DNA from: Algicola sagamiensis DSM 14643
GTDB lineage: Bacteria > Pseudomonadota > Gammaproteobacteria > Enterobacterales > Alteromonadaceae
Length of the DNA stretch: 64,000 nt
Assembly: GCF_000374485.1 (NCBI RefSeq)
Contig: NZ_KB894498.1
Coordinates: 27,199-91,198, forward strand
Direction of reading: 5' to 3'
Position numbers: made by a program. This document shows, piece after piece, positions 27,901-39,900 of the stretch. How positions within the stretch are numbered: position 1 is the stretch's first letter; each line of letters starts with the position of its first letter.

Positions 27901-30900
27901 CATACACCAAAATTAGTGACAAGATAAAACACAGTTGCACTTGAGAGCGACACGGCGCTGATATTGATGAAGTTCACTTGTTTTTTGAGCAAGCGGCCTA
28001 AGAAAATACTCCCAACCAACGCCATCGTGACCCAAAGCAGGTTGCTGGAGAACCAAACGAATCCATCATAATAAGCACCATAAACAGCATTATTGAGGAT
28101 AAGATCGCTGAACCAATAGGCCAATAGTGGGACCAGAAGGGCTAGGCTTTTTCGTTCTAAAACAGCACCTGCAAAAAGTGCCATCGCACCAACGGCCGTA
28201 AAGTTTGGGGGGTGTGGGAGCAGTCTGCTCAGTGCTGCAAGCGCCATTGCACTGAGAATAAAAATAAGCTGACTTTTCTTCATGTCTTTAAGCCTGTGAA
28301 TCGATATACTAGTACTCTCACATGAAGGGGCCGGATATGCAAGTTATGGGAGAAATTTCTTCACCTATTTGTATTGAAATGAAGAACAATATCCCCATTC
28401 TTTATGAGAGACCATATTTCCGAAAAGATATTAATACCAAACTGTGCTCATGTTGCTGTCTAGTTCGGTATTAAATTCAAAAATTTGGAGGAAATATGAA
28501 CACAGCGAAACCGAATATCCTCGTGATTGGTGGTGGTGCAGGTGGATTGGAGCTGGTTGCCCGATTAGGAAGAAAATACGGTAAAACAGGAAAGGCAAAC
28601 GTCACGCTCATTGATAAAAGCCCGATTCATATCTGGAAACCTCGGCTCCATGAGTTGGCTGTTGGCGTCCTCAACTCAGATATTGATGGTATTTTATATC
28701 GAGAACACGCCCGTAAAAACGGCTACCATTATGAACGGGGTGAGTTAAGTGGCCTCAATCGTCAAGAAAAGACCATCACCCTCGACCCAGTCGCCAATGA
28801 TGACGGCGAAGTCCTTCTTGATCAGCGGCAATTTCAATACGATATTCTCGTCCTTGCAATTGGTAGTCTGACCCACGACTTCAATACCCCAGGCGCAAAA
28901 GCGCACTGTTTCTTCCTCGACAATATTCAATCTGCTGAAAAATTCCAGAAAAAACTCCTCGAACAGTTCATCAAACTCAATGAAGCCGACTCTCCACTCC
29001 GGATCACCATGATTGGTGCGGGTGCAACGGGTGTGGAGCTTGCTGCAGAGTTACATCATGTTGCGGATACCCTGTCAGAATATGGCTTCAAGCATGTGTG
29101 TGCAGAAAAACTCAAAACGCGCGTTGTCGAAGCAGGCCCCCAAATCTTGCCTGCTGTGCCTGAAAAAGTCGCCAAGAAAGCAGCGTCCGAGCTAGAAAGG
29201 CTCGGTGTGGAGATCCTCACCAATACCCGGGTGACTGAAGTCACCGAGCAAGGCATCCAAACCAGTGCAGGCGAGTTATTAGAGAGTGATTTAGTCGTCT
29301 GGGCTGCGGGCGTAAAAGCGCCGGACTTCCTCACGACACTGGATGGTCTGCAAAGCAATGGGAGAAACCAGCTCCTCATTACAGATACGCTCATGACCAC
29401 AGAAGACGAAAATATCTTTGCCATTGGGGATTGCGCTGGCCTAGAGCTTGGAGAAAATCAGTGGGTTCCTCCTCGTGCCCAAAGTGCCCATCAGATGGCA
29501 GATACGGCTTTCAAAAACATCCAGGCAATATTAGAAGGCAAGGCGCTGGTCGCATTTGAATATAAGGATCATGGCTCTTTGGTTTCTCTGGCGAAATACT
29601 CAGCTATAGGTAGCTTGATGGGCGGCCTGTCAAAGAAAAGCTGGTTTATTGAAGGACAAATGGCGCTTGCGATGTATCGCCTGCTCTACCGTGCTCATTT
29701 AATGGCTATTCATGGTGCTAAACGTGGCTGGGTTTATATTCTGGCTGATCGGATCGGAAAATTGAGCCGACCAAAAATAAAGCTGCATTAATCGACGTCA
29801 TAAAAGTACCGATTTAAAGCCCAAAATATACCCGTTTTATATCTAAAAAAGGGTTGAAACATGTCATAGTATGACATTTTCCAGCCCTTTCATTCCTTTC
29901 CCTGCAATACATAGTAAGCATTCACTCACACTAAAAACGTAGTGTTTTTAAGTTGTTTTTACTCGATCTACACATATTGCTATGCTAGTATCCTGATTCC
30001 TGAATTATTCTGGAAACTGGTTAGATTGGTTTGAGATCTCTAATCTTAGATCAAGTTGTTTTGCAAAGAATGGGGAGTATGTAGCGACGATGGACAGTTT
30101 TATCAATGCAATTTTTTCCTTTCCTGTGGCTGTATTTTCAGTGCCATTCATCGTCTTTTTTGGACTGATGTTATTGGATCTGATTTTTAGTTTTTCAGAC
30201 AGCTTTTCTACGGATGCTGACGTCGATGTCGACGTGGATTCGGATATTTCCTGGTCAGGAAAATTATTGCTGCCTCCGATTGTGGCACAATTACCATTCC
30301 CTGTTTTATTTACGGCGACCTCATTTTTTGGCACCGTGATCACCTTCTATCTCAATGATTTTATTTTCAGTCAGCTTTCTGGCGTTCTTTTTTACGTTGC
30401 AGCAGCGGCTGGTATCTTATTCACTTTTTATATCTCATTACTGGCATCTGCTTTTGCACTCAAGCCACTTGAGCCATTGCTTTGTCCACAATCCTTTGCT
30501 GCTATTGATTTTCAAGGGATGAATGCACAGGTTCGCAGCGCCACCGTGACAGAAACCCATGGTGAAGTTGTCATCACAAGAGATGGCAATGAAATTCAAC
30601 TTGATGTGTACAGCGAGCCAGGCGTTCAATTCGAATACGGCGATGAAGTCACAATTATCGCAAAAAATGATGATTCGAATCGTTACCTAGTGTCGAAAAT
30701 ATAGTGCACTAAATTCACTATAAATTGCGTCGCTTAGGTTTGAAGCGACGACGAAACCCACAAATTGAATAAACTTAGGTTAATCTAAAAAGATTGATCC
30801 GGCTTTTTATTCGCCAAATTTAACAATTTGCGTTGTCGGTAAAGCGATATTCGGTGAAGTGATGTTGACTCTCTGCTACAGCACAGCCCTCTTGACTCGG

Positions 30901-36900: not shown

Positions 36901-39900
36901 CCTGGTTATGGTAAAACGACCTTAATTGAATACGTAGCCCATAAACTTGGTCTGGTGTTTATGAAAATCAATGGTCCATCGCTTGGACATGAAGTCACCT
37001 CACTTGACCCAAATGATGCGCCGGATCAAAATGCGGCAAGAGAGGTAGAAAAGCTCAATCTAGCACTAGAAATGGGTAACAATGTCCTGCTTTATATCGA
37101 TGATATTCAGCACACAAGCGCAGAGTTTCTGCAAAAATTTATCTCACTATGTGACGGCACACGAAGAATCGAAGGCTCGTGGAAAGGCGAAACCAAAACC
37201 TACGACATGCGCAGTAAGAAGTTTGCGGTTGTCATGGCGGGTAACCCTTATACCGAATCAGGCGAAGTATTCAAGATACCCGATATGTTGGCAAACCGTG
37301 CTGATATTTATAATCTCGGGGATATGCTCTCCGATCAAGCCGATGCGTTTGCAATGTCCTTCATCGAAAACTCGCTGACATCAAGTCCAGTTCTTGCTCA
37401 AATGTCAACACGCGATCTGAACGATCTTTATCGCCTTATCGCAATGGCTCAAGGAGAAAATGTCCCGCTTACTGATTTATCTTATCCATATGCCGCTGCG
37501 GAAGTGAATGAGATCACCGCAACTTTGGAGAAACTCTTAAAGATCCAAAAGACTGTCCTCAAAGTGAATCAACAATACATCGCTTCTTCTGCCACTGCAG
37601 ATGAATACCGAGTGGAACCACCGTTTAAGTTGCAAGGCTCTTACCGGAACATGAATAAACTGACAGAAAAAGTGTCAGCAGTCATGACCAATGAGGAGCT
37701 TAATACACTCATTACGGATCATTATCAAGGTGAAGCGCAAACGCTGACATCCGGTACAGAAGAGAATCTGCTCAAACTTGCTGATATTCGTGGTGATATG
37801 ACACCTGCTCAACAGGAACGTTGGCAGGAAATTAAGGAACGATATAGCCGAAAACAGCAGCTGGGAGATGATGACGACCGAGCAGGTCAGATGGTCAACC
37901 AAATGATCCATCTCAACCAATACGTAGGTCGCGCAGTCAAACGCCTAGAAAATATCAAACGGATGAGTGTGAGATCACCAAGTAAAACCTCACCTGAAGT
38001 GAAAAAGCATACAGTGAAACCTGGAAAAACGGTTTTGAAACAACAAAAAAGCAAAACCAGTTCACAAAAAACATCTTAATTGTTGAAAAGAACCTTCTAA
38101 AAAGGCCACTTCCCTGTGGCCTTGCTTCTCCAAGATGAAAAAAGTCTCAATAAAGATCACTCACCGATTAAAGCACGGCCTATCATCGCGCTTGAATACA
38201 TGACGCGTGATGGACCAAATGCACGTGTTGGTTTCCATACATTACTTCTTGCGACCGAAGAAGATGTTTTCACTAAGCTTGGCAAGGCTCGAGTTACTCC
38301 TGATTTTGGTGCAACTGCTTGACCATTCCTGGCTAATTCAATGACCTGCTTTCCGGTTTGGTTTGCTAAATTCTGTGCATAAGAATTCGAAAACCAGGTT
38401 GAGCCTTTAAATAGAGCTGCTCCCCCTTTGCCACTGATGGCAATACGCTGAAAGGGCATTTGCCCATTAAATGCTTGATTCAATGTCCTCGCAACAAACT
38501 TCGGGTGATAGTGAGCAACACTTGATGTTACCCTTAATGTTGTTTGGCCCGATCCTGAAGCAGATGACATCAGACTTGGATTTAAACTTCCTCGAAAGGA
38601 AGCTTGCGCGGCCGCCGTCACTCTAGCACCAGCCACCAGCGAGCCAATACCAGTCACAGCGGAAGCGATACCAAATGCTAGTGCCGCGTAGCCTAAATTC
38701 GCAGAAGCTTCCGGGTTTGATCCAGATACAGCTCCAGATGCAATTCCCAAAGCACCACTGACCGTCCCCGTAACACCAGCTGTTACAACTAAACCGGCCT
38801 TGATTGCCGCTGCCGTCGACATAGCAACCGCGCCAGAAATCAATCCCGCAGATGCTGCAATCCCTGATCCGAGTGTGACGACACCAATCAGTACTGCAAG
38901 AATGCCAAGACCAATTGCGACACCAGCCTGCCAACTTAAATGGCCCGTTGGATCAACAAGATTCACAGGATCGCCTAGGCAGTATTGATACCCATGGACA
39001 CCACCTTCCTTAAATGGACTCAGACTATCTATTTCGAGAAAACGCTTGAGCCGCGGGTGATATGCGCGATAGCCTTCTCCTAAGTGATACAAGCCCGTGA
39101 CGTGATCTTGCACTGCACCCGAAAAGCAGAGTGGATTTTTAAAAATATACATACCTTGAGTACCATTTTCCGCCAAAGAGAACAATGCAGCACTCGTTGG
39201 CATACTGGTACTGATCAAAGCACCCGCTGTTGCCAGCCAGGATGATTTCACGAGAAACTTTCTGCGAGATAAATCTGGTTTGTTTTCAACGGTTGTTCGT
39301 TGATAAACTGCTTGTTTTTTATCAATCACCATGATTAATACTCATTATCACGAACACCGAAATCATCCCAGTCCAGATCGTCATCTGTGTTGTGATCAAT
39401 CAGTTTTAAGTGAACCGAGTTTCCGTACTGATCAAAGACACGAAACTTTTGACGGAAATCATATCGATAGGAATCATCAGAGGTGGTATTCACATAGTGG
39501 CCATCTTGTTTGATTCGGCTACATATATTTCTAGAACCAACACGTGAGCAATGACGCCAATCATCGTAGGTCCCCTTCCCTTGAACAAATTTCACATTGT
39601 CAGTCGATAGAGGGAGGTCAAAGTGGTAATCTTCACGACCTTCTCCTTCGATGTTCCAGATACGAACATAGTCTTTGATAGTTTGACGCTGCACAGAAGG
39701 TTTATAGGGATAAAGGACGAGAGATTTCGCTACTCTACCTCGATTGATAATTGAGTGAAATCCACCGCCAGGACGAAAATAATCCACCGCTCTAAAAGAA
39801 TGTGTTGCTTCTTGTAATGGGTTGTCCCACTCTAGGCCATATACCTTGACATTGTTATCCTTCGGGGTCAGTTGCCAATATCCCACATACCATGTGTCTT

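Follow-up and report, generated by a model that had tools for sequence, protein, structure and literature searches.

In a 64,000-nucleotide stretch of the Algicola sagamiensis DSM 14643 genome (contig NZ_KB894498.1, positions 27,199 to 91,198; hereafter the window), three open reading frames (ORFs) lie one after another on the plus strand, coding for a YqiJ-like membrane protein, a YqiK-type flotillin, and a giant cytoplasmic ATPase (genes 1, 2, and 3; Table 1). The gaps between them are 258 nt and 40 nt, and the coordinates and spacing of the co-directional set given in the original prediction hold. The locus almost certainly belongs to an operon class that is already described, corresponding to bacC-bacD-bacE, and we favor reading it, at a probability of about 0.6, as the three-gene core of a flotillin-linked envelope-stress module in which the ATPase would act as an ATP-driven remodeler of flotillin/YqiJ.

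We surveyed relatives of the ATPase in one genome per species, found them in at least 584 species, and analyzed the best 80 of these at least 584 loci (39-64% ATPase identity); they derive from Gamma-, Beta-, and Zetaproteobacteria, Myxococcota, Actinomycetota, Acidobacteriota, Planctomycetota, and one metagenome-assembled genome labeled Clostridia. Neighbors were detected with hidden Markov models (HMMs) made from the window proteins and run against all six-frame ORFs. A flotillin gene lies upstream of the ATPase gene and on the same strand at 78 of these best 80 loci, which is 78 of the 78 that are evaluable, across at least seven phyla; at the two loci without one, at most ~50 nt of contig is present upstream. 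The two genes are directly adjacent at 75 of the 78, and a YqiJ-like gene lies upstream of flotillin at 73 of the 80, with six of the seven misses having too little upstream contig. The flotillin-ATPase association is thus far beyond chance, and the proposal of a conserved operon joining a yqiJK-type pair to a giant ATPase, offered originally with the caveat that the ATPase might occur mostly without flotillin, is sustained at every evaluable locus.

In the reverse direction, metagenomes were scanned with a flotillin alignment; with seven non-evaluable loci set aside, the ATPase gene follows flotillin at 68 of 73. At the other five (loci L119, L121, L132, L137, and L150), the 1.3-7.9 kb downstream of flotillin contain no ATPase gene, and a YqiJ-like gene was detected upstream at each. 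With 78 of 78 in one survey and 68 of 73 in the other, the dependency is asymmetric, such that the ATPase needs the flotillin and not the reverse. These natural ATPase-less variants could reveal what the ATPase contributes.

A few loci depart from the usual arrangement. Other genes, spanning 2-6 kb, separate flotillin and ATPase at L020 (6585-9923), L021 (7965-9980), and L066 (3554-9848), the last of which also has no detectable YqiJ-like gene. At L003 (Veronia nyctiphanis, 7810-14850), the flotillin and ATPase genes are each split into two ORFs, suggesting either joint decay of both partners or frameshift errors in the assembly.

The products of genes 1 and 2 are both divergent members of their families. 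Gene 1 has hydrophobic segments near aa 15-33 and 92-124 and a C-terminal domain that is beta-rich as judged by eye. At full length it matches no Pfam or NCBIfam model, including YqiJ_N, YqiJ_OB, and NfeD, and YqiJ_N recognizes only one of 43 family members; a profile of those 43 members nonetheless aligns with Escherichia coli YqiJ (hhalign 94.7%, E 5.8e-8, 130 columns) through both the transmembrane (TM) region and the C-terminal domain. Gene 2 has a TM anchor (aa 7-25), an SPFH domain (~aa 33-190), and a long coiled coil rich in E, A, K, and R, with a GG motif conserved at the C terminus in the family alignment. Full-length gene 2 also finds nothing in Pfam or NCBIfam, Band_7 (PF01145) being silent even at E<=10, whereas Band_7 scores 36.2 bits against a gathering cutoff of 23.6 on the isolated aa 1-246; we attribute the full-length miss to a coiled-coil bias effect. 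Band_7 matches seven of 44 full-length family members, and the Pfam Flot model (PF15975), absent from gene 2 itself, matches one of the 44 (E 0.006). Used as a homology query, the 246-aa SPFH fragment returned just 19 proteins, mostly partial. The similarity to E. coli YqiK is clear by BLASTP (9e-27, 25% identity over 434 aa) and by comparison of the family profile with YqiK (hhalign 99.9%, E 4.5e-34). Judged by these alignments with yqiJK, and by Band_7 on the isolated N terminus rather than by full-length Pfam matches, the YqiJ-like and flotillin labels first given to the two genes are right, though both subfamilies are divergent.

Gene 3 has no TM segment in a TM scan. Its start is ambiguous, the candidates being GTG at 33064 (which opens the ORF), ATG at 33079, and GTG at 33088; an A. 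sagamiensis protein in NCBI matches the window ATPase at 100% identity, and its length of 1663 aa points to the last of these. A C-terminal AAA_5 domain had been described as its only recognizable feature, but DUF3686 and DUF7902 are also present (Table 1). AAA_5 scores 28.6 bits against a gathering score of 22, and the AAA+ core has a Walker A motif (SPPGYGKTT, aa 1273-1281), a Walker B motif (LLYIDD, aa 1337-1342), a pre-sensor-1 beta-hairpin, the sensor-1 residue N1389, and a conserved R1407. Among solved structures, the closest folds to this module are the MoxR ATPases CbbQ and NorQ. The middle of the protein (aa 691-1260) has no family in a relaxed Pfam scan (E<=10), which returned only sub-threshold coiled-coil noise, yet it contains a conserved motif in which G981, H983, and D986 are invariant across 24 diverse ATPase members, and further invariant middle-region residues are D854, G869, E923, and R1011 (region aa ~900-1010, window 35775-36100). 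This GVHDxDA-containing region could, speculatively, be a metal-binding or catalytic site. The DUF3686 domain family comprises ~600 clusters at 50% identity, with full-length members of 1600-1900 aa.

Sequence searches of PDB with the ATPase gave only matches of P-loop length, plus a weak one of the family profile, in the DUF7902 region (aa ~567-682, ~34777-35124), to the syntaxin-1A Habc three-helix bundle (E 0.002). The latter was flagged for its membrane-fusion context, and we rejected it as most likely coiled-coil compositional noise.

Table 1. Features at the A. sagamiensis flotillin-ATPase locus, numbered from the first nucleotide of the window
Feature	Coordinates	Strand	Evidence
Ndh-like oxidoreductase gene upstream of the triad (Pyr_redox_2)	28496-29791	Precedes the hairpin	Pyr_redox_2
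Upstream hairpin with U-rich tail	29848-29890	+	RNA fold -18.8 kcal/mol, z -4.77, 0/200 shuffles as stable
Gene 1, YqiJ/YuaF-like (short NfeD-like) membrane protein, 204 aa, BacC equivalent	30090-30704	+	Profile comparison
Gene 1-gene 2 spacer, 258 nt, with weak hairpin at 30725-30754	30705-30962	+	Fold -12.9 kcal/mol, z -2.15
Gene 2, YqiK-type flotillin/SPFH, 691 aa, BacD/PaFlo3 equivalent	30963-33038	+	Band_7, BLASTP, hhalign
Gene 3, giant cytoplasmic ATPase, 1666 aa, BacE/PA3728 orthologue	33079-38079	+	Pfam architecture, homology
DUF3686, long N-terminal helix then divergent beta-propeller of ~28 strands (aa 37-485)	33187-34533	+	Pfam E 2e-154
DUF7902, helical/coiled-coil segment (aa 606-688)	34894-35142	+	Pfam E 1.5e-16
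Conserved G-[VI]-H-D-x-D-[AG] motif, middle region (aa 979-987)	36013-36039	+	Alignment
MoxR-class AAA+ core (aa 1260-1415)	36856-37323	+	AAA_5, motifs, fold
Hairpin with 8-bp GC-rich stem	38102-38123	Both strands fold	U5 tract on minus-strand side, weak plus-strand tail

The triad is a separate transcription unit, because the strong upstream hairpin parts gene 1 from the Ndh-like gene. At its other end, the original prediction placed a terminator, which we confirm only in part: a GC-rich stem does exist, but the U5 tract is found on the minus-strand side, where it serves the convergent gene, and a consensus terminator scanner makes no call there. The stem is possibly a bidirectional terminator between the convergent ATPase and 38157-39332 genes. 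Within the unit, the spacer preceding gene 2 is long compared with a family median of 33 nt, reaching 200 nt or more in just four of 72 loci; its weak hairpin has no U-tract, and a good Shine-Dalgarno sequence (AAGGAG) precedes gene 2. An Rfam scan of the operon, spacer included, gave zero matches, and a search for sigma-54 motifs found none upstream of the operon, unlike what is reported for the bacA promoter, nor any in the spacer. The spacer may hold an internal promoter or attenuator.

Downstream of the triad, on the minus strand (38157-44474), convergent with the ATPase gene, there is an RHS-repeat protein gene (40743-44474, 1243 aa) followed by two same-strand ORFs without a Pfam match (39335-40567, 410 aa; 38157-39332, 391 aa), for which an RHS toxin/immunity or orphan-module arrangement could be conceived. 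Further upstream are genes for a methyl-accepting chemotaxis protein (25655-27592, plus strand) and a DUF6580 protein (27735-28283, minus strand), which have no relation to the operon and do not recur beside it at other loci.

At other loci the triad often has additional partners. Recurrent co-directional neighbors identified by HMM are DUF2170 (YjfI/CesT-like) together with PspA/IM30 upstream (29 loci), and PLD-like (14 loci), TelA (11 loci), and rhomboid (8 loci) proteins downstream. All of these partners are confined to Gamma- and Betaproteobacteria among the best 80 of the at least 584 loci, and none of the five is present anywhere in the window. Bare triads account for 40 of the 80 loci and include all 31 of the non-proteobacterial ones; it is the three-gene core, and not the PspA-containing form, that is phylogenetically widespread. 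At 90% identity, the cluster of one Pseudomonas ATPase (P0113) includes several 229-aa PLD-like proteins. Their presence is probably an artefact of clustering, caused by gene calls that read through or fuse ATPase and PLD, although it could hint at real bacE-bacF fusions.

How the three products might work together is more tentative than the identity of the locus, and we consider ATP-driven remodeling plausible at slightly below even odds; that the ATPase contacts its partners, forms a ring, hydrolyzes ATP, and has a remodeling target is inferred. With one TM helix at its N terminus as anchor, the flotillin would form an oligomeric assembly with its YqiJ-like partner at the cytoplasmic face of the inner membrane. 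The soluble ATPase, probably as a CbbQ/NorQ-like ring, would dock on this assembly through its beta-propeller and helical arm, and would spend ATP on building, dismantling, or remodeling the flotillin complex or clients of that complex; in proteobacterial versions carrying PspA, it may also remodel PspA polymers. HflK/C with FtsH and ESCRT-III with Vps4 are parallels, as analogies and not homologies. A bolder version, which we regard as possible but on balance doubtful, holds that the bare triad, and not the operon with PspA, is the ancient functional unit, in which the ATPase is a dedicated flotillin remodeler (a 'Vps4 for SPFH cages') whose beta-propeller or helical arm would recognize the flotillin/YqiJ complex, with PspA, PLD, TelA, and rhomboid as later proteobacterial add-ons. 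A remodeling or stress function coupled to flotillin, as first proposed, agrees with the published inference on this operon class.

Several observations weigh against a flotillin remodeler. The AAA+ core is unusual in that Walker B ends in DD rather than DE, and this is invariant in the 24 diverse members; the first glycine of Walker A is replaced by serine (SPPGYGKT), with the lysine and threonine retained; and the segment equivalent to the pore loop, GHxVTSLDP, appears to lack the aromatic-hydrophobic-glycine motif of threading unfoldases. MoxR ATPases normally work with a VWA partner, and no VWA/MIDAS domain turned up in the ATPase itself, elsewhere in the operon, or among the recurrent neighbors. 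Both the contact between ATPase and flotillin and the ATPase activity itself are predictions from sequence. The linkage figures cover the closest 80 of the at least 584 ATPase matches, with the more divergent members lying outside that sample, and the five same-subfamily flotillin/YqiJ pairs without an ATPase indicate that the flotillin is able to function without it. In Pseudomonas aeruginosa, deletions of SPFH genes including paFlo3 (BacD) give little laboratory phenotype (PMC13086221).

We considered four other explanations, all of which are less well supported than a flotillin-coupled remodeler. In the best-placed of them, which is still unlikely, the ATPase mainly serves PspA as a Vps4-like disassemblase of PspA (ESCRT-III superfamily) polymers and flotillin is a mere platform; in Algicola, the target would be a PspA encoded elsewhere in the genome. 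PspA and DUF2170 do lie directly upstream of the triad at 29 of 47 Gamma- and Betaproteobacterial loci, the entire bac operon is co-regulated (PMC10948618), and abbreviated operons may use distant PspA homologues (Ravi et al., mSystems 2024, PMC11237479).

Improbable, too, is an anti-phage defense role, raised in the original prediction, in which the giant NTPase would sense infection and flotillin/YqiJ, together with PLD at loci that have it, would carry out an abortive response directed at the membrane. Giant NTPases are frequent in defense systems, and some loci carry a PLD-family protein that is annotated as a nuclease in some sources. Every phage-infected P. aeruginosa sample in one study (PMC12041424) shows upregulation of PA3728-PA3732, but phage induction is expected of a Psp-type envelope-stress response anyway. 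A search of PADLOC-DB with the three proteins (E<=0.01) matched zero families, and so gave the defense proposal no direct support; the recurrent neighbors are membrane-homeostasis proteins, with no recurrent defense genes in the neighborhoods analyzed; and the 90%-identity cluster that contains the P. aeruginosa ATPase (P0346) numbers 3,222 sequences, which is easier to reconcile with a conserved gene of wide occurrence than with a defense island of patchy distribution.

A MoxR-type maturation chaperone, which would insert a cofactor into or activate a membrane enzyme complex and use flotillin as an assembly site only, is about as improbable as the defense role. CbbQ acts on Rubisco and NorQ on nitric-oxide reductase; that these two are the nearest structural relatives, that AAA_5 is above threshold, and that the conserved His/Asp motif could speculatively bind metal all speak for maturation, but the partner that defines CbbQO, NorQD, and RavA-ViaA systems is missing, the neighborhoods hold no conserved candidate client enzyme, and flotillin and the YqiJ-like protein are the only universal neighbors. 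Finally, it is very improbable that gene 3 is a DNA repair enzyme with an incidental flotillin neighbor, as its database name ('DNA repair ATPase' in NCBI and UniRef, inherited from the Pfam DUF3686 description) would suggest: the weak RuvB-type matches reach 18 bits against equivalog cutoffs of 282-299 and cover ~45 P-loop residues, Pfam scans found no nuclease, helicase, or DNA-binding domain in the ATPase, the literature library that was searched has no paper on DUF3686 and none tying 'DNA repair ATPase' to flotillin, and the linkage at 78 of 78 evaluable loci is not incidental. Thousands of database entries thus bear an annotation that has no support.

The flotillin-coupled remodeler bears on how bacterial flotillin assemblies might be built, dissolved, or coupled to energy, and an ATPase that accompanies one flotillin subfamily at every evaluable locus is a strong candidate for supplying the energy-dependent step that has been missing. 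Staphylococcus aureus FloA/NfeD, by comparison, is cited in a passage of PMC13086221 as an ATP-independent stabilizer of unfolded proteins. Were the bare triad to prove a remodeler, its ATPase would be the first energy-dependent regulator of flotillin-type microdomains. The triad also offers a tractable route into bacE of the biofilm and virulence-associated bac operon of P. aeruginosa.

Pairing of an SPFH membrane scaffold with an AAA+ machine is familiar from HflK/C-FtsH and from prohibitin and the m-AAA protease (cited in PMC13086221). The likeness of the window locus to HflK/C-FtsH lies in that pairing and is an analogy only: FtsH is a membrane-anchored classic-clade AAA protease, whereas the window ATPase is soluble, of the MoxR class, without a protease domain, and equipped with a beta-propeller. 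CbbQ and NorQ are stand-alone modules of ~260 aa with the VWA partners CbbO and NorD, in contrast to the module of the window ATPase, which is the C-terminal part of a 1666-aa protein with Walker B DD and no such partner.

Genes 1 and 2 correspond in kind and order to E. coli yqiJK, but there the pair has no downstream ATPase and is followed by sibD/ibsD, and the window flotillin, 25% identical to YqiK, is 138 aa longer. Closer is the P. aeruginosa cluster, extended to bacABCDEF (PA3732-PA3727/PA14_16140-16200) in PMC10948618, where reverse transcription-PCR across every junction in PA14 shows co-transcription and where a bacA mutant has all downstream products increased 6-13 fold, a sigma-54 promoter being proposed. 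Induction by stress or by phage is likewise known for P. aeruginosa from published work. The gene order that we see in P. aeruginosa is DUF2170-PspA-213aa-688aa-ATPase-PLDc_2, and the order of bacC-bacD-bacE is that of the window triad; their products are a YqiJ-like protein of 213 aa, a flotillin-like protein of 688 aa, and an ATPase of 1746 aa with the same DUF3686/DUF7902/AAA_5 domains, which shares 44% identity with the window ATPase along the full length. The window differs in having neither DUF2170 (BacA) nor PspA (BacB) ahead of the triad and no PLD (BacF) gene behind it, in its 258-nt gap between genes 1 and 2, and in having no sigma-54 motif upstream. Searches of the literature on DUF3686, on 'DNA repair ATPase' with flotillin, on flotillin with MoxR, and on BacE turned up no experimental work on the ATPase itself.

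The association was originally thought to be undescribed, and that claim of novelty fails because Ravi et al. (PMC11237479) had described the operon, including its abbreviated three-gene form; bacABCDEF is a second published account (PMC10948618). In the account of Ravi et al., abbreviated operons have flotillin, YqiJ, and sometimes the ATPase without the CesT/Tir-PspA dyad, are the more widespread, and occasionally include PLD. The window triad shows no essential difference from theirs, agreeing in its three components and in the description of the ATPase domains. It has each of the features of the flotillin-YqiJ-AAA+ class, namely a protein with TM, SPFH, and coil segments, a multi-TM YqiJ/YuaF-type partner immediately upstream of it, and an AAA+ domain fused to an N-terminal helix/coiled coil and a beta-propeller; and because a PspA-less locus is the published abbreviated form, its membership of the class stands. 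The A. sagamiensis locus thus adds a member to a described, mechanistically uncharacterized operon class, and what our analysis contributes beyond Ravi et al. is the linkage in both directions (78 of 78 and 68 of 73), the assignment of the ATPase to the MoxR class, the TelA and rhomboid neighbors, and the bare triad as the sole form outside the Proteobacteria among the loci analyzed.

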